Shown: positions 14,546 through 53,952 of the stretch, piece after piece
Position numbering within the stretch: the first letter of the stretch is position 1
Layout: each line of letters opens with the position of its first letter
Assembly: GCA_964016885.1 (NCBI GenBank)
Contig: OZ024742.1
Coordinates: 96,782,001 to 96,846,000, forward strand
Length of the DNA stretch: 64,000 bases
Origin: Eledone cirrhosa
Taxonomy: Eukaryota
Reading direction: 5' to 3'
The notes under the pieces: model-generated
Told to the model about the DNA's origin: nothing
Databases searched by the model: none
The model's input: the letters and a program-made list of their open reading frames with translations, nothing else
Translations under genes and position numbers: made by a program

Positions 14546-14869
14546 CCATAAATATATCATGTAAATATTTATATCCCATTGCATAACTCATTAAATTAAG
14601 ACGCTAAGGCATAACTTAATCCATTGGTCATCTTTAACTAATAATGATTACGCCCGAGTTACATATTTTTAAAATAGCTTCTTGATATTAAATTTAATTA
14701 TAATGTGATATAATTGCATTGCAGTTGCATGAAACACATTGATTCTAATTCAAAACGATGGTTTTGAACCTATATGCTTTATGTAAATTTTTTATAAATC
14801 AAATAGCACATATATTTATATATGTATAGTTTGTTACATTGTGTCTGTACTTTACATCTCAGTAGATGT

Positions 14870-17800
14870 ACATCATCATCATCATCAGTTTACGTCCGCT
14901 TTTCCCTGCTTGCAAGGGTGGGACGGGTTTTATTCAGCACAGCATCTCTCCACTTGTCATGGTCCTTCGTCATCTCTACCGTGAGCTTCAGCGATCTGAG
15001 GTCTGTTCTCACCACCTCCGCCCATGTTTTGCGTGGTCTACCCTCAACTGTTATTTCCTGGCACTTCTTCACCCATCGTTCATCCTCCATGCGCATCACA
15101 TGTCCATGCCACCGTAGTCTCCTCTCTCACAGACTACATTCTATCCCTCTCAGACACAGTTTCTCTCTCAAAACATCCATGTTCGGTCGTTCTTGCACAT
15201 TGACATTGCACATACAACAGAGCATGCTTGTCTCATTTCTCTCCAGCTCTCGCATATCCTCTGCAGTTGCTTCCCATGTCACACTACCATGCAGCATCGC
15301 GCTCCTCACACAGGCATCATATCATCGGCCTTTCGTACGTAGGGATAAACCCTTCTTCGTCAGCAGAGGAAGCAGCTCCTTAATCTTCTTCCAACCTGTC
15401 CTTATTCTAGATACTATGGCCTCGGAACACCCCCCTCCCATGCTAATCTGACCTCCTAGTTACTGTAAGCTAACAACCACTTCTATAGCACCCACCTGCA
15501 TTTGAAAAATGTGTCTATCAATGCGACTTCTACTGTCTAATTTCCCTGTACATCTACTGCATACGTATTTCTCCCTACCTGTTAGTTTCCCTGCTATCCC
15601 ACTACATCTCTTGTGTATCCAGGATCTGCATTGTGTGCATTTTATAGAATTTATGCCAGTTTATTTTCTGCATATCGAACATGGCCATTTCCCTGACGGA
15701 ATCAGAGTTTTGTCCTCTTTTCTACTCATCAACACTTTTGTCTTAGCTAGGTTCACTCTCAGTCCTCGTGATTCCAACTGCTGTTTCCATACCCAGAATT
15801 TATTCTCTAGCTCCTCTACTGATTCTGCTATAAGAACCAGATCGTCAACATAGAGAAGTTCCCATGGACAGCCAGTCTTAAACTCCTCTGTTATGGCTTG
15901 GAAGACTATAATGAACAAGAGCGGGCTGAGGACCGAACCTTGATGTACTCCTACTTATATCTGGAATTCCTCACTAAACTCCATTCCTACCCTCACTTTA
16001 CTGACAGCACCTCTGTACAAAGTTTGCACTGTCCTCACAAGCCATTCTTCAACACCTAGTTTCCTTAGGGACCACCAGATGACAGATTGGGGTACCCTAT
16101 CAAAGGCCTTCTCTAGGTCAACAAAGGCTAAGTATAGTGACTTATTCTTCTCTAAGAACTTCTCTTGTAATTGTCTCACCAAGAAGAGGGCATCTGTTGT
16201 ACTTTTCCCAGGCACAAAACCAAACTGCATCTCATCTAGTTTAACCCTTTCTCTAATTAGTTGTGCTAATATCCTTTCTGCCACTTTCATAACCTGATCC
16301 TTCAGTTTTATACCCCTACAATTGCTCCTCTCCAGAACATCCTCTTTACCTTTGTAGCAATTTATGAAAATACTGCTGCACCAGTCTTTCGGTATGACAC
16401 CACCATATATAGCCTGATTGATGATGTATGCAACCAGTTTAGTGCCTACGTCCCCTGATGCCTTCATCATCTCAGCAACTATCCCAGACGGGCCAGCAGC
16501 CTTACTATTTTTCATTTTGTTACTCGCCTCTTGGTCCCTCTGTCGGATCTACTGAGGGTAATTTCTCTCTCTCCTATTCGTTCTCCACATCCAGCAGTCT
16601 CTCATAATGACATTTCCAAGCCTCTTTTTTCTGATCATTCGTGAAACTAAGTACACCGGCATCATTCCGGACACATTTATCTCCAACAACATCTTGATTT
16701 GCATTGACACACTGCCTTGCAATGTGGAACACCGCACGCCTCTGATCTTCCCATCGCAGAACATTGGCAACCCTCCTACTCTTAGCCTCCCTGCGTGATA
16801 AGTACACCTGATGTCTAGCTTCTCTCTTAGCGGCTGTATATCCTTCTCTACTCCCACCATTTTTCCAAGCCTTCCATGCTAGTCTTTTGTCTTTAATGGC
16901 CTTATCTACTGTGCTGTTCCACCACCAGGTCACTCTCTGTTTGGCTGGAGCTCTGCTCCAGCCACAAGTTTCATCGTTTGTAAGTTGTCACGTAAGAAAT
17001 TCCAGTTATTATCTATGTCATACGTCTCTAAATCGTCTTCTTTTTCGTCATACACATCTTGAAGGGCTTTCCTAAATTTTTATCTTAGTGAAAGGTCTTT
17101 TAGCTTCCAGACCTTTCTTCTCCACACCTTCCTGTATGACTCATTCCATCTCTTGCTTACTGAGATATCACTAACGACTAACCTATGCTGTGGGGTATAT
17201 TCTTCCCCAGGGTATGCTTTGGTATTTGACACCATCTGCCTGTCCCGCTGCCTAACTAGTAAGAAGTCAATCTGGCTTATGTGCTCGACTGATTTGTAGG
17301 ATATTAGGTGATTGGCAGGTTTCTGGAAGTTAGTTTTTCAAATAGTCAGTGTACTTGCATCACAAAATTCAAGAAGTCTCACTCCTTCTTCATTTCTTGA
17401 GCAGTAACCGTGCCCACCATGTACTCCAATGTAACCATCCTGGAGCTGTCTGACATGACCATTGAAGTCCCCTGCTAGCATAATGATGTCTCCATCCTCT
17501 GTCATTGCGGTTGTTTGTAAAAGTTGCTCGTAAAAGCAGTATTTCTCTTCTTTGCCTAGGCCTGCTTGGGGAGCATAGGCAGAGATTATTGTCAGTAGTC
17601 TCCTGCCTACAAATAATCTAAGCTTAATTATTCGATTATTAACTCGAACTGCCTCTATTGTCTTATTAATCCATCTCTCAGCCAGGAAAATGCCTACTCC
17701 CCGTAACCCATCATCCTTACCTAACCAGAAAAGCTTATAGCTAAGATGTATGCCTGAGACTAGTCTCACAGAGGCACCTCTCCATCTCACCTCTTGCATG

Positions 17801-36813: not shown

Positions 36814-38912
36814 AATATGAAATCGAAAATGCAACTGGAGTCTTATTTTTAAAAAATATATATATATTTATTTGGTTCCTTTGCCGGTTTCGGAGTTCTT
36901 CTGCTTTTCAAAAGTAGAGTTGAGATGGAGGGTCTGTAGTATTTCTCACATCTGGTTGGTCTTTAAATGTTACTTGTTTTATATGGAAAAATGTGGCTCG
37001 AAACGCCAGGTTTTTATAGAAGTAATTTGATTGGTTGGTCAATAAGTATAATAAATTTCGCGCCAGTTCGCGTTACAAAGTTCTTCAAACAGTGGGGGGG
37101 GGAGCTCAGGTTGATTTTTCATATATGAGTGTTTGAATTTATTTTTACTTAAAAAAGGGGCTCACGAAGCCTCTTTTTAAAAATGTAATTTGATTGGTTA
37201 TAAATGAAATTATGGTTGTCACGTGAAAAAGTTCATTAAATTTCGCGCCCATATTTGGGAATTTATTTTGTAGCCTTTTAGAGAATTTTATGACAAGCAA
37301 AAAAATGGTCAAGAGAAATGGGATGGGAGAATTGTTCTGGTTCAGTGAATATGACTAGTTCGCTGGGGTGTCAGAGTTCAGAGTTTCTATTGAAATAAAG
37401 TAGACATATGTATGTTTATTTGTGTGTTTGTGTGTGTGTGTGTGTATAGGAAGATGATTATATTGGTAGAAATGTGGGAGGAAGTTGTGTGTGTGTGTGT
37501 GTATGGGTGTTATGTGTGTGTGTGTGTGTGGGAGTATGGAGAGAATATTTATATTTTGTGTGTGTAGGAAAGTGATTCTATTAATGGGGAGAGAGTTGTG
37601 TGTGTGTGGGGGATGTTATGTGTGCGTTTATGGGTGTTATGTGTGTGTGGGAGTATGGTTAGCATGTTAAGATGAAGAGAATATATATGTTGTGTATCAG
37701 TGTGTGTGTGTAGGAAAATGATTCCGTTAGTAGGAATATTTTTGAATGAACATATTTTCCTTACTTATTCGTATTTGTTCTGTTGTATTGTCAGCGCAAA
37801 CGTATGTCAAGTTTTATTTAGTTCGGGTTTTTATTTTCTAAAGTAGAAGGTGTTATGTGTGTGTGTATGTGTATGTTTGGATGGTTAGCATGTTATGGTG
37901 TTGATATAATGTATATTAAACCATATTTAATGGTGGTCTATATTTTTTAGTAAACATATTTTCCTTATTTATTCGTATTTGTTCTGTTTTATATATATTC
38001 TCTTCATCTTAACATGCTAACCATACTCCCACACACACATAACACCCATACACACACACATACCCCCCCCCCCCACACACACACAACTGCCTCCCCAATT
38101 TCTACTAATAGAATCACTTTCCTACACACACACACACACACACAAAATATATATATTCTCTCCATCTTAACATACTCCCCCCCACAACACACACACATAA
38201 CACCCATATATAAACACACACAACTCCCTCCCCCATTTCTACCAATAGAATCATCTTCCTACACACACACACGCACGCACACACACACACACAAACACAC
38301 AAATAAACATACATATGTCTACTTTCTTTATTTCAATAGAAAATATGAACTCTGACACCCCAGCGAACTAGCCATATTCACTGAACCAGAAAAATTCTCC
38401 CATCCCATTTCTCTTGACCATTATTTTGCTTGTCATAAAATTCTCTAAAAGGCTACAAAATAAATTCCCAAATACCGGCGCGAAATTTAATGATCTTGTT
38501 CACGTGACAACCATAATTTCATTTATAACTAATCAAATTACATTTTTAAAAAAAAAGCCTTCGTGAGCCCCTTTTTTAAGTAAAAATAAATTCAAACACT
38601 CATATATGAAAAAACAACCTGAGCCCCTCCCCTCTTCTTTGAAGAACTTTGTAACGCGAACTGGCGCGAAATTTATTATACTTATCGACCAACCAATCAA
38701 ATTACTTCTATAAAAACCTGGCGTTTCGAGCCACTTTTTTCCATATAAAACAAGTAACATTGAAAGACCAACCAGATGTGAGAAAAACCACAGACCCTCC
38801 ATGTCAACTCTACTTTTGAAAAGCAGAAGAACTGCGAAACCGGTAAAGGAACCAAATAAATATATATATATTTTTTTAAATAAGATTCCAGTTGCATTTT
38901 CGATTTCATATT
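36814..38912. mobile_element. Large fold-back element (arms ~36814-37689 and ~37991-38912)
   Basis: Arms are reverse complements with scattered mismatches; no coding capacity; ~300-bp spacer holds a 36-bp direct repeat. Confidence 0.85.
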
Positions 38913-39169
38913 GTTTTCTTTATATTTGCACTTGTGTAGCACACCTCGATTATTTTTCATTTTGTAAAAAAACCTTACAATTATTCCTCTATATCTCTTT
39001 CTCACTTCCCTCCCACCACACTCAGTCTTTCTCTGGAAGAAATCTGCAGCATTCAGGCCTGGCAGACTTAACATTTCATAAACACGCTGTATGTCACTAC
39101 AGTGCCATTACAACTCCAATAGGAATTATGGGACTAAAGAGAAAGAAAGGTATATGTATATTACATATA

Positions 39170-39357
39170 ATTGTTTCTACTTTAGGCACAAGGCCAGCAA
39201 TTACCCAGTTCATTACTGGTTATTTATTTTATCGACCCCGTAAGGATGAAAGGCAAAGTCAACCTCGGCGGGATTTGAACTCAGATCGTAAAGGGACGTA
39301 ACTATGCTGGAAAGCATGGCGTCCGTCTCTCTACCGATACTGCCAATCCATCGCCCT
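39170..39357 (-). mobile_element. tRNA-derived SINE, full length
   Basis: Near-identical reverse complement of 40815-40999. Confidence 0.92.
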
Positions 39358-39401
39358 TATATTACATATAATGAATATGTTTATGTATATATATGTAACA
39401 A

Positions 39402-39473
39402 GCTGTCTGACGATGTCGCGAGACTGGCGCACAGAACAGTGTGGCCTTTCGCCATTGAAATATATATCACAGC
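39402..39473 (+). ncRNA. Type I hammerhead ribozyme
   Basis: gctgt CTGACGA [43-nt imperfect stem II, gcgaga/tttcgc] GAAA tatata TC acagc; AUC cleavage after 39468; stem II closing pair is U.U. Confidence 0.8.
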
Positions 39474-40729
39474 ATTATAATTAAAGGACTTGAACATCTG
39501 AAACTACTTCGCTTTTCCTTATTCGATATTTACTCCGTCACTCCTATGTGGAATAAGTACGTTGAGTGCTTGATTTGAATTGCATCAATATTTACCCTAA
39601 GAATTTAGCTCCAATTAGTTGAGCGCTCTATGATGTAACCGATATGGTGGAGAAGAGACGAACCAACCATGAGCTACCCCTGGAAATTCCCTCTACCATG
39701 GGATGGAAACCCCTGACACTGGACGGACATAATAACAACTTTCGGCAGGATAAATACGCGGAAACAAAGATAAACCCCTATCTTTCTGCACCAAATCGCA
39801 TTTGAACAGAAGCCCCCTCAATTCAACCTATACATGGACAAATTGACAATAATATGGATCATTTTGCATATATGTACTCTGTGTTTTTGCATTCATTCAC
39901 TCATTCACTCATTCATTCATTCATTCATTCATTCATTCATTGGTTCTTTTCTTTTGTGTACTTTATATATGTCTTTGTTGGTTTTGTTCCATGTGATGGA
40001 AATTACGACTATGTACCCACTTGACTACTACCCGTAATACTGTAATTTACCCTCAGTTCTACTGTATGGCACCATCGTTCAGTATGTAGATAGTGTAACT
40101 GTAACATTAGGACCCCTTTCAGAACTTCTTACTTAAACATCTCTCTGCATATTATTTACTCACTTCAATCTATATGTTTTTTCTACTCACCTCAATCCGG
40201 ACTCTCACTTGAAAAATCTTTAATTGTTTAATTTATACTTGTTAATTTTTTAATTTATAATTTCTGATACTTGATTTAGGATTTTCGATTTTAAATTGTA
40301 ATATTTAGTTCTAATTTCACTTATAACTTCCAATATGAAACTATGATATATAGAATTAAAAATATATAATCTTAGGGGTTGATGGTCAGTTATTAGTGAG
40401 AGGTAGTATAGAGACCTGTAAATACTAACACTCTCCCACCCCCACTGGCTTTCGGCTGACTGCCACAGATGGGATGGGTAGCAGTAAACTATGGTGTCGG
40501 CTTGAATGGGTCATTGTCTGGCTGAGAGAGGGAACTGACCAAGCGAATTTCGTTTAAATCTGCGGTAGCTAATGGTCAACTTCCCCCTGGACCTGCGGCT
40601 GCGCAGACCAGTGGGGGTGAAGTGGTACTCACAGGGGAACGGATGAAGAACCCAAAACCACATATTTCGTCCGTTCCCATGTCGATTCAATTTGGATTGC
40701 CTCGGAATATTAACCTTATTATGTAACAA

Positions 40730-40803
40730 GCTGTCTGACGATGTCGCGAGACTAGCGCACACAACAGTGTGGCCACTTTCGCCATTGAAATATATATCAC
40801 AGC
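40730..40803 (+). ncRNA. Type I hammerhead ribozyme (second repeat)
   Basis: Same core and stems I/III as 39402-39473; differences confined to distal stem II; cleavage after 40798. Confidence 0.8.
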
Positions 40804-40814
40804 ATTATTATTAA

Positions 40815-40999
40815 GGGCGGTGGATTGGCAGTATCGGTAGAGGGTCGGACGCCATGCTTTCCAGCATAGTTACGTCCCTTTACGATCTGAGTTCAAATCC
40901 CGCCGAGGTTGACTTTGCCTTTCATCCTTACGGGGTCGATAAAATAAATAACCAGTAATGAACTGGGTAATTGCTGGCCTTGTGCCTAAAGTAGAAACA
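40815..40999 (+). mobile_element. tRNA-derived SINE with 11-bp TSD
   Basis: attattattaa at 40804-40814 and 41000-41010; the empty site is visible in the first repeat at ~39474-39484. Confidence 0.95.
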
Positions 41000-41046
41000 A
41001 TTATTATTAAAAGACTTGAACATCTGAAACTACTTCGCTTTTCCTT

Positions 41047-41085
<39 letters not shown>

Positions 41086-43749: not shown

Positions 43750-43885
43750 GCATGTTTATGTTTGCCCATGTATATGTATGTGTGACTGTGTGAGTAAATA
43801 TAGCTTAAAGAATATACATAAACATACCACATAAAAATACACACACACACATATATATATATACATATACACATATATGTATATA

Positions 43886-43922
<37 letters not shown>

Positions 43923-43932
43923 ATATATATAG

Positions 43933-43979
<47 letters not shown>

Positions 43980-43980
<1 letters not shown>

Positions 43981-45670
43981 CAGACGCTCTTTTCATTGTA
44001 CCACAACTACAGGAGAAGTACCTAGCTAAAGGTAAACCCCTCTACTTAGCTTTTGTCGACTTGGAGAAAGCCTTCGACAGACTCCCCCGCTCCATTATCT
44101 GGTGGGCTCTTAGAAAACTAGGGGTTGACGAATGGCTTGTGAGAGCTATACAAGCCATGTATAAAGAAACAGTCAGCAAGGTTAGAATTAACAACGAATA
44201 TAGTGAAGAGTTTAGCGTAAAAGTTGGCGTCCATCAGGGCTCTGTTCTCAGCCCCCTACTATTTATTATTGCCCTTCAGGCTATAACAGAGGAGTTCAAG
44301 ACCGGCTGCCCATGGGAACTCCTGTACGCAGACGACCTGACACTCATAGCTGAATCAATGGCCGAGCTAGAGAAGAAATTCCAAACATGGAAGCACGGCC
44401 TAGAATCAAAAGGACTTAAAATTAACCTGGCTAAGACTAAAGTTCTAGTTTGTAGGAAAGAAAATAAGGCGGCGGTCCCTTCTGGGAAATGGCCATGCTC
44501 AGTGTGTCGGAAAGGCGTAGGTAGAAACTCCATTTTATGTCCCAAATGCAAAGTATGGGTGCATAAAAGATGTAGTGGGATCACAGGTAAGCTAACTAAG
44601 AACATAGATTTTACATGTGGCCGGTGCTCTGGTGCAATAAGTAGCAGCAAGTGCCCACAATACTAGCTCTTTCAATTGCGCAGAGGGTTCTATAGAAATA
44701 ATGGACAGCTTCCGTTACCTGAGCGATAAAATCAGCAGTGGGGGAGGGTGACTGAAAGTACAGTAGCTAGAGTCAGAACTGGTTGGAAAAAGTTCAGAGA
44801 GCTTATACCACTATTAGCTGCTAAAGGGTTCTCCCTAAAAATGAAAGGCAGGTTGTATGATGCCTGCATACGAACAGCAATGTTGCATGGCAGTGAGACC
44901 TGGGCATTGTGTGCAGAGGACATACGCAGACTAGAGAGGAATGAAGCTTGCATGCTCCGCTGGATGTGTAATAGTAATATACGTGAACGGCAAAGCATAA
45001 ACGAACTAAGGAAAAAATTAGAAATAAGAGGGATCAGATGTTGTTTACTCAAGAGAAGGTTACGTTGGTATGGACATGTGATGCGCATGAAAGTCGATAG
45101 CTGTATAACAAAGTGCAGGGCAATAAAGATAGACGGTAGCCACGGAATAGGCAGACCTAGAAAAACCTGGGACGAGCTGATAAACTCCGACCTCACACAC
45201 TTACACCTCTCCAAGACAATGTCACTGGACCGAGACCTTTGGCGGTACTCAGTAACAGAGAAGACCCGCCTTACCTAAATACATAGTAAAACCTACTACA
45301 GCCAGTAGGCATCTCTCACAAAATTCACCCCGTCCCACCACCCCCACTCCATCCACACCACCCCGTTCTATGTAAAGTTATGTTGGTGCCGCGCCATCCA
45401 GGCCGAAACAAATGAGATCGTGTAGGTGTCACGACAAAAAAACACACAGTCCACGCTGTAATGTGGCCGTGTAGGCAACACGGTAAAAACCTCCCAGACC
45501 CACACTGTAAATGTGGTTGGTGTTAGGAAGGGCATCCAACTGTAGAAAACCTGCCAGACAGTCCTATGCGAGCAAGACAATCACTCTTGCCTCAGGTGGG
45601 AATACACCCGTCCAAACCCATGCAAGCGTGGAACACGGACGTTAAACGTTGATGATCATGATGATGATGA
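43980..45670 (+). mobile_element. 5'-truncated RTE LINE inserted in (TA)n
   Basis: TDALFIV..AFVDLEKAFDR..HQGSVLSP..LLYADDL, Cys-rich CSVCRK..CPKC..HKRC..CGRC, then AMLHGSETW..GRPRKTW; 3' UTR ending in (GAT)n. Confidence 0.95.
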
Positions 45671-52510: not shown

Positions 52511-53379
52511 GGAGGTGAGTTTTATTGTAGTACAATAAAGCAATGCAGATATCAGATAAATTTATAACTGACACGAATTCCTTCACCTATTTTGGCTCCA
52601 CTTCCACCTCCTTTAAAGCTCGTCGTTATAATTTCATTCGTCTTTTAAATACCAACTTAAAAGAACCAACACGGCACTCTCAGAACTCATATGGTCCTTG
52701 AAAGACAAAAATATTAAATATAACATCTCTTGGAAAAAGGTTTCTTCTGCTTCTCAGACTTGAACAGTTCTCTATCCAAGTCTTGCAATCTCTGTTTAAA
52801 TGAAAAATTTACCATTATATCTAATTTAGATTCTATAATAAATAGACGCACTGACTTGTTTTCTCTCTGCTTGCATAAATTCCACAGAACATTCCATAAA
52901 GTATACAGCTAATATCTAATACTTTATCAATTTAAAATCCTTTTCTCAAAGGCACTTATTTATATATATACTTCTTTACAATTATACCCATCTTTCTACC
53001 TTATTTCAAAGTTATTTATTATACATTATATAATACTAGTTACTCATTCTATATCACTCCTATTTATCACTTCCCTTTCTTCCTTTTCCTTTTCTTTTCC
53101 TTTTTCTTTTAATTTCTAACCCCTAATCTGTACATTTTCTCATTGTGCCTAACATAGAAACAATTATTACACAGTAGAATATATTCTTACTTTATATCAC
53201 CTTGAAAAAAATCCTTCTTAAACAAAAACATTTTTTGACGTTAGATTATTCATCCTCAATTCATTATTTTTTTCTCCCTTTCGTGGTCATCTAAATTATT
53301 CATGCTCATCTAACTTATTCATCCTATCTTCTACTTCTTTCACAATATATCCTTACTTACATTACTATTGCTTTTTTTA

Positions 53380-53881: not shown

Positions 53882-53952
53882 TATTTTATCTGATGAAAAC
53901 ACAAATGTTATTGCATGATGATATTTGTTTTTGAAATGCGCATAATAAAATA
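53882..53952 (+). ncRNA. Type I hammerhead ribozyme
   Basis: Perfect stem I tattttat/ataaaata, CTGATGA, stem II acaaatgttatt/gatgatatttgt, GAAA, palindromic stem III atgcgcat, AUA cleavage after 53944. Confidence 0.85.

Follow-up and report, generated by a model that had tools for sequence, protein, structure and literature searches.

The locus described here raises the question of how 1.3 kb of DNA flanked by two hammerhead ribozymes came to lie in the genome of Eledone cirrhosa, and which enzyme wrote it there. It lies in a 64,000-nt stretch of contig OZ024742.1 (assembly GCA_964016885.1, positions 96,782,001 to 96,846,000 of the forward strand), which is called the window below.

Architecture of the locus and its ribozymes

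Two type I hammerheads were read from the sequence at 39402-39473 and 40730-40803 of the window, with the arrangement GCTGT-CTGACGA-stem II-GAAA-TATATA-TC^ACAGC and with predicted cleavage after C39468 and C40798, a spacing of 1330 nt. A preliminary description had proposed hammerhead-bearing direct repeats with cut sites 1330 nt apart, and these positions agree with it, the repeat measuring ~135 nt. Comparison of both copies also bore out its statement that stem II alone distinguishes the hammerheads, by two substitutions and a 2-nt indel, the core and stems I and III being identical; two further substitutions between the repeats lie just 3′ of the ribozyme. The second repeat is interrupted by a 185-nt SINE, continues to 41050, and then gives way to (TA)n. 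As had been noted earlier, RT and endonuclease frames are absent from the unit, in which no stop-to-stop frame exceeds 97 codons. The parts of the locus are as follows.

39167..39359, minus strand: independent SINE copy in the 5′ flank, with its own duplication; outside the element
39390..39524, plus strand: 5′ (internal) repeat, ~135 nt; its left end is a truncation point in a TA-rich tract
39402..39473, plus strand: type I hammerhead 1, with 5-bp stem I, U10.1.U11.1 and a long stem II; predicted cut after 39468
within 39402..39473, plus strand: stem III of hammerhead 1, 2 bp, palindromic AUAUAUAU
39469..40798, plus strand: predicted 1330-nt monomer, cut site to cut site; non-coding
39532..39570, plus strand: hairpin motif 1 (ACTC...GAGT-GCT), 7 nt past the first fixed 3′ end (equivalent to 39524)
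39608..39627, plus strand: hairpin motif 2 (GCTC...GAGC-GCT), 6 nt past the second fixed 3′ end (equivalent to 39601)
40720..41050, plus strand: 3′ (terminal) repeat, split by the SINE and terminating at the first fixed 3′ end
40730..40803, plus strand: type I hammerhead 2; predicted cleavage after 40798
40815..40999, plus strand: full-length SINE inside the 3′ repeat, with an 11-nt target duplication (40804-40814 / 41000-41010)
41051..41085, no strand: (TA)n target tract at the 3′ junction

Rfam models returned no hammerhead at the gathering score or at E≤5, where only TA-repeat noise appeared. A type I hammerhead core was found in each unit, and in an alignment of 16 ribozyme copies, drawn from exact-pattern matches and the window, 84.8% of cells pair and three pairs, all in stem II, show double changes. 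Position 10.1/11.1 is unpaired (U.U) in 13 of the 16 copies. The preliminary description had warned that this closing pair may lower activity; the mispair is present, but the concern is weaker than feared, given this frequency, the same U.U in three of the six published Hydra hammerhead consensus sequences (by eye, File S7 of PMC8557442), and reports of natural U10.1-U11.1 hammerheads in which U.U is the best-tolerated mispair (Perreault, 2011, PMC3088659). It also occurs in a local 459-nt family and in the local Hydra element (by eye), and is inherited rather than a product of decay. Stem III has two pairs and a palindromic loop predicted to be able to form an 8-bp duplex; newt and axolotl ribozymes with such a stem III work as dimers (PMC7229834).

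The element had been called unrelated to the window's other hammerheads, which holds for the sequence, but several of them share the palindromic loop III and a downstream hairpin. These other type I hammerheads lie at 29891-/29909+, 32191+, 32524-, 51747-/51918+, and 53890+, with loop III TATATA, TATGTA, or TGCGCA, and some have a hairpin of the RCTC...GAGYRCT type downstream; the one at 53890+ lies ~1 kb past a Hydra-type endonuclease remnant (52558-52894). The region 36847-38880 is an inverted-repeat structure containing Neptune-like element 3′ ends (matches at 37736-37987). The 459-nt family (L082 5700-6160, L126, and L127) is a retrozyme-like unit with stem I GCTGT/ACAGC, a U.U pair, and loop III CCGTCGG.

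The family, its ends, and its SINE insertions

The exact ribozyme pattern had 2,370 genomic matches and its reversed control 0, and it is therefore not due to chance; four of the first 100 matches listed belong to the 459-nt family. The family comprises about two thousand dispersed repeats. A 1420-nt query recovered 2,447 candidates, of which 40 were scored, and the best 19 other loci were 88-96% alike over most of the length; the interior is also common to 40 near-full-length units, whose tree is ladder-like. An interior unique to this locus would have indicated flank captured between two solo repeats, as the preliminary description pointed out, and these loci gave the opposite result. That two solo repeats captured local flank, or that the unit spread by DNA-level duplication, is accordingly given almost no probability: capture is refuted for the family by the 19 loci sharing the interior, and against both stands the fact that the interior recurs across many contigs, where flanks and 5′ truncations differ and 3′ ends are fixed, whereas duplication can call on L191 (G000:C1:115285543-115288682), whose repeats share one SINE-plus-deletion junction removing the cleavage site. 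The L191 junction also removes GAAA, leaving a ribozyme-dead unit that was either duplicated as DNA or copied from uncut RNA.

Thirty-five of the 40 units formed six subfamily groups, mutually 88-98% alike, with consensus lengths of 1237-1322 nt (the one of 1237 nt being 5′-clipped), compared with 1330 nt at this locus, which belongs to the young group; members of that group diverge by 2.8% from its consensus. Conservation across the six groups is highest in the 210 nt that follow the ribozyme and the 140 nt that precede it, and the AT-rich middle drifts; in the 1330-nt monomer this fast-evolving AT-rich middle is accompanied by a (CATT)n tract. The suggestion that the element carries cargo found no support, as no reading frame is conserved across the subfamilies (40 units, six groups) and the interior is thus not shown to be cargo; the longest ATG frames are 41-145 codons, depending on the group, and tblastn with Neptune-like and Hydra proteins matched no Penelope protein remnant in the unit. 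The young subfamily has an intact 53-codon frame downstream of hairpin 2, but this is frameshifted in most other subfamilies and was rejected as coding cargo.

Two full head-to-tail units occur at L203, and at one locus two tandem units are identical at 1295 of 1297 positions. Divergence of the ribozyme region is 4.9% within loci (50 pairs) and 8.8% between them (8,206 pairs), and the nearest neighbor is the locus mate for only 27 of 85 ribozyme copies. A rod-like or unusually stable fold was rejected (circular z about -1.5, 12 shuffles). An older short family (L132-L190; 2,928 candidates) has a homologous repeat, a G-C closing pair, two fixed ends, and internal inversions, and may be a small relative of the 1.3-kb unit. 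A sister family in which the closing pair is G-C (136 matches) was set aside: it is short, and none of 60 loci showed a frame upstream.

The 5′ end varies among copies, and an inverted second arm is often present. The flanking repeats are not LTRs of fixed extent: at the 5′ side a copy is truncated arbitrarily, and a fixed position is seen only at the 3′ end, which falls at one of two sites 77 nt apart that abut (TA)n or (TC)n. When 152 repeats were walked against the consensus, 50 stopped at 132-140, 44 stopped at 210-215, 34 read through, and the remaining 24 stopped elsewhere, many at indels; by strict patterns, 598 repeats end at the first site, 216 end at the second, and 41 read through. 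None of 157 segments had an arm starting at the cleavage site (consensus 78-81), and no A-to-G strand bias of the kind that would mark an RNA stage or editing scars was detected (50 vs 60). A single arm, at L050, runs from consensus 212 to the second site one unit on, exactly one turn. Loci L015, L031, and L034 extend far beyond the second end and could be linear masters. The copies look Penelope-made: they are variably truncated at the 5′ end, have inverted second arms, lie in (TA)n targets, and end at two fixed 3′ positions. This anatomy together with the shared interior supports the earlier reading of the element as a large non-autonomous Penelope derivative or retrozyme.

The SINE at this locus, which we take to be tRNA-type from A/B-box-like words judged by eye in its head, lies 5 nt past the cut site and is flanked by the 11-nt duplication ATTATTATTAA. 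Of 241 repeats counted, 53 (~22%) carry a SINE at this position, directly past stem I of the hammerhead: ahead of the repeat's ATTATTATTAA, it was found in 6 of 41 internal repeats and in 47 of the first 200 terminal repeats listed (p=0.30). Clear duplications of 8-21 nt, found at 13 of 29 such insertions, and inserts of 40-195 nt point to mostly independent events. The general target of the SINE is ATTAT, and occupancy at matched 8-mers elsewhere is 1 in 85; at the exact 11-mer it is roughly 6% (3,225 sites out of ~49,000, a figure extrapolated from only 15 sites). The excess in the repeat is thus ~3- to 20-fold according to which control is used, and may be no more than three- to fourfold. 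Capture of SINEs during reverse transcription was considered when score-ranked loci gave 8 of 20 terminal and 1 of 16 internal repeats, and was rejected on the position-ordered counts above. The flanking inverted SINE pair was likewise rejected as a terminal inverted repeat, each SINE having its own duplication. At L013, L018, L106, L149, L184, and L188, a SINE was inserted into the tail of an earlier copy, giving tandem SINEs. LINE-type RT frame fragments lie at 43809-44666 on the plus strand (RT core by eye) and at 14807-15451 of the window, and such a LINE could be the driver of the SINE.

A hairpin shared with Hydra-clade Penelopes

The single RT and GIY-YIG frame (RWK, DKT, CxCX5C) that is absent from the 1.3-kb element was found in a separate, abundant local family with intact 713-codon frames, in which 130 of 130 scored matches are 96-100% alike. 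The 713-aa element has RWR, DKT, CxCX5C, CxxC, and CxH motifs, inserts in (TA)n, and fits the Hydra clade as defined in the parts of Craig et al. (2021) covered here; no Pfam model matches its protein. Loci L241, L230, and L229 (G000 C3, C3, and C8) carry this young, very abundant Hydra-clade element with an intact 713-codon frame; in its hammerhead the core is CAGAAGA (U4 to A) and the closing pair is U.U. The preliminary description had asked whether an autonomous Penelope-like element shares the repeat of the 1.3-kb family, and none was found to do so among one full-length Hydra family and 50 loci around GIY-YIG matches, apart from one nested copy; the 713-aa element gave no BLAST match to the 40 units. 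On sequence grounds, the link of the 1.3-kb family to an autonomous element runs through a short hairpin and not through a shared repeat.

This hairpin, RCTC...GAGYRCT, is located 6-7 nt beyond each fixed 3′ end of the 1.3-kb family, and the local Hydra element carries GCTCC...GTTGAGCACT 6 nt past its end. Relative to the hairpin, the microsatellite starts at -6 in 23 of 33 Hydra ends and in 40 of 75 second-site ends of the 1.3-kb family, whose first-site ends have it at -7 or -9 in 39 of 71 cases; the motif occurs in shuffled sequence at 1.2 per Mb. A looser form is visible in five of the six published Hydra consensus sequences, representing four phyla (by eye, File S7 of PMC8557442), namely Hydra-2_Amil, Hydra-1_Obim, Hydra-1_Ajap (twice), Hydra-2_Ajap, and Hydra-1_Crog, with stems GCTC/GAGC and, once, GCCC/GGGC; it is not clearly visible in Hydra-1_Amil. 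The strict pattern was found in none of seven metagenome Hydra-like loci, and hairpin 1 is not formed in the minimum-energy fold of its own 58-nt segment. Other hammerhead families, in the window and in the loci, carry the motif too, in few copies and at scattered offsets. The same hairpin at the same distance from the ends of both families makes the Hydra RT the likely driver of the 1.3-kb family, and the hairpin likely marks the site at which Hydra-type Penelope copying starts. Its presence at both sets of ends appears to be a new observation, as no paper describing it was found in the literature searched, of which coverage was partial, and the covered parts of Craig et al. (2021, PMC8557442) do not mention it.

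It is quite improbable that another Penelope clade mobilizes the family and that the hairpin is no more than a relic by inheritance, a promoter, or a signal for translation. Neptune-like elements, too, are abundant and AT-targeted, many of the 10,595 GIY-YIG candidates being Neptune-like with long frames, but all of 20 loci selected for long GIY-YIG frames, most of them Neptune-like, lacked the motif. In favor of this alternative, the motif of Hydra elements sits immediately upstream of the start codon; against it, the non-coding unit carries the motif twice, and 6-7 nt before each copy lies one fixed end.

Proposed copying cycle and comparison with known systems

The reading that we favor, and consider probable, is that the locus is an insertion of a protein-free hammerhead repeat, copied into (TA)n by a Hydra-clade RT/endonuclease, likely from self-cleaved and circularized RNA. 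A read-through transcript would cleave itself at each of the two hammerheads, which probably dimerize by way of the palindromic stem III, and so release a 1330-nt monomer that a host ligase would circularize. The Hydra protein would bind a hairpin, nick (TA)n, and prime on the AU-rich stretch of 6-7 bases immediately 5′ of it; the RT would then pass the ribozyme junction for a variable length, sometimes for more than one turn, and would often repeat the same copying from the other strand. The SINE would have been added later, by ordinary target-primed insertion.

Since the cDNA would extend away from the hairpin, a copy never contains the hairpin just past its own end, and re-copying at full length would therefore depend on a circle or on a jump between templates. 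With its end at the first site, this locus has hairpins only in the 5′ repeat, and full-length progeny could arise only by one of these two routes; second-site copies longer than one unit would need hairpin 2 downstream of a whole unit, in a circle, by a jump, or in a linear multimer. The circle itself we only infer, given the possible linear masters that pass the second end and the sufficiency of uncut RNA for Poseidon in vitro.

A weightier alternative, still unlikely in our judgment, keeps the same driver and hairpins and takes as template uncut linear read-through RNA from a few multimeric masters, or lets the RT jump between linear RNAs, the hammerhead being weak or dispensable. A few linear masters would fit the ladder-like subfamily tree, multimeric loci and loci passing the second end do occur, and uncut RNA is the chief substrate of the Poseidon RT in vitro (PMC11167929); read-through repeats, however, are rare, at 41 compared with 814 terminal repeats by strict patterns. 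As to the ribozyme, mutants did not reduce insertion by Poseidon (PMC11167929), only one of nine retrozyme dimers cleaved in vitro (bioRxiv 2026.07.22.740005), and U.U, G.U, and C.C in lower stem II together with a 2-bp stem III suggest slow cleavage, but the core and stem I show no change in any of the 16 aligned copies (picked by a pattern demanding them), stem II covaries, and no part of the unit is better kept across the six groups than the ribozyme flanks.

Copying from a self-cleaved circle, the reading preferred here, allows a generalization that is tentative and may well prove too broad. Among Hydra-clade Penelopes, from coral to cephalopods, a shared and undescribed hairpin may fix the RT start 6-7 nt upstream, and hammerhead cleavage and circularization may be needed for full-length re-copying by Hydra elements and by their retrozyme parasites; in that case no animal retrozyme circle in the literature compared would be larger than that of the 1.3-kb element, whose duplicated start signal would explain the two ends. 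The function of the hammerhead in endonuclease-bearing Penelope elements has been called unclear (Craig et al., 2021, PMC8557442); if the proposal is true, omission of the hairpin would explain why Hydra-type elements need a ribozyme. The dependence of animal retrozymes on Penelopes had previously been based on co-occurrence and repeat similarity. Here non-coding and intact autonomous families in one genome share a 20-40-nt hairpin at equal distance from their ends, which names a candidate enzyme, an RNA signal, and a start nucleotide. This suggests that any RNA bearing the hairpin could be written into (TA)n by the Hydra RT, and that repeat searches with a capped period overlook retrozymes >1 kb.

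Four known systems invite comparison, each as far as the published parts covered here describe it. The Poseidon RT of Anolis uses two internal start sites in vitro, producing the genomic ‘tail' (Frangieh et al., 2024, PMC11167929), and thus resembles the 1.3-kb element in having two fixed starts downstream of a hammerhead, as it does in its AT-rich targets and the extension of both strands; its starts, however, lie in an AC-rich stem-loop inside the frame with a tail of 30-40 nt, whereas the 1.3-kb element is non-coding, with a 77-nt tail and a duplicated hairpin beyond each start. Chlamys MRC1-type elements (PMC8557442) are also non-autonomous Penelope derivatives with pseudo-LTRs and head-to-tail copies, but they are algal, mostly without canonical hammerheads, and resemble their partners over the 3′ end. 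With the Hydra clade (Craig et al., 2021, PMC8557442) the element shares the (TA)n target, pseudo-LTR, inverted arms, canonical hammerhead core, U.U pair (three of six consensus sequences), a stem I similar to that of Hydra-2_Ajap, and the RCTC...GAGYRCT hairpin after the ribozyme; unlike that clade, it has no frame, no protein remnant, and no repeat alignable to the local 713-aa Hydra element, and as read here it is not an autonomous Hydra element.

The closest likeness is to the animal non-LTR retrozymes, which also consist of non-coding head-to-tail units with one type I hammerhead each and GC <45%, have a short palindromic stem III suiting dimers, and have been proposed to depend on Penelopes. 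Their units were given as 170-400 nt by Cervera and de la Peña (2020, PMC7229834) and as 51-972 bp in a tandem-repeat search limited to periods of up to 1000 (Li, Clavereau and Pollet, 2026, bioRxiv 2026.07.22.740005); at 1330 nt, the present unit exceeds both ranges, in line with the preliminary description. Copies of the 1.3-kb element also differ in being dispersed, mostly <~1.2 units long and without long arrays, and here the ends, the target, and a candidate driver clade are resolved. In sequence it corresponds to these retrozymes, with a unit that exceeds the published ranges compared, and on that basis is a new, larger variant of the animal non-LTR retrozymes.
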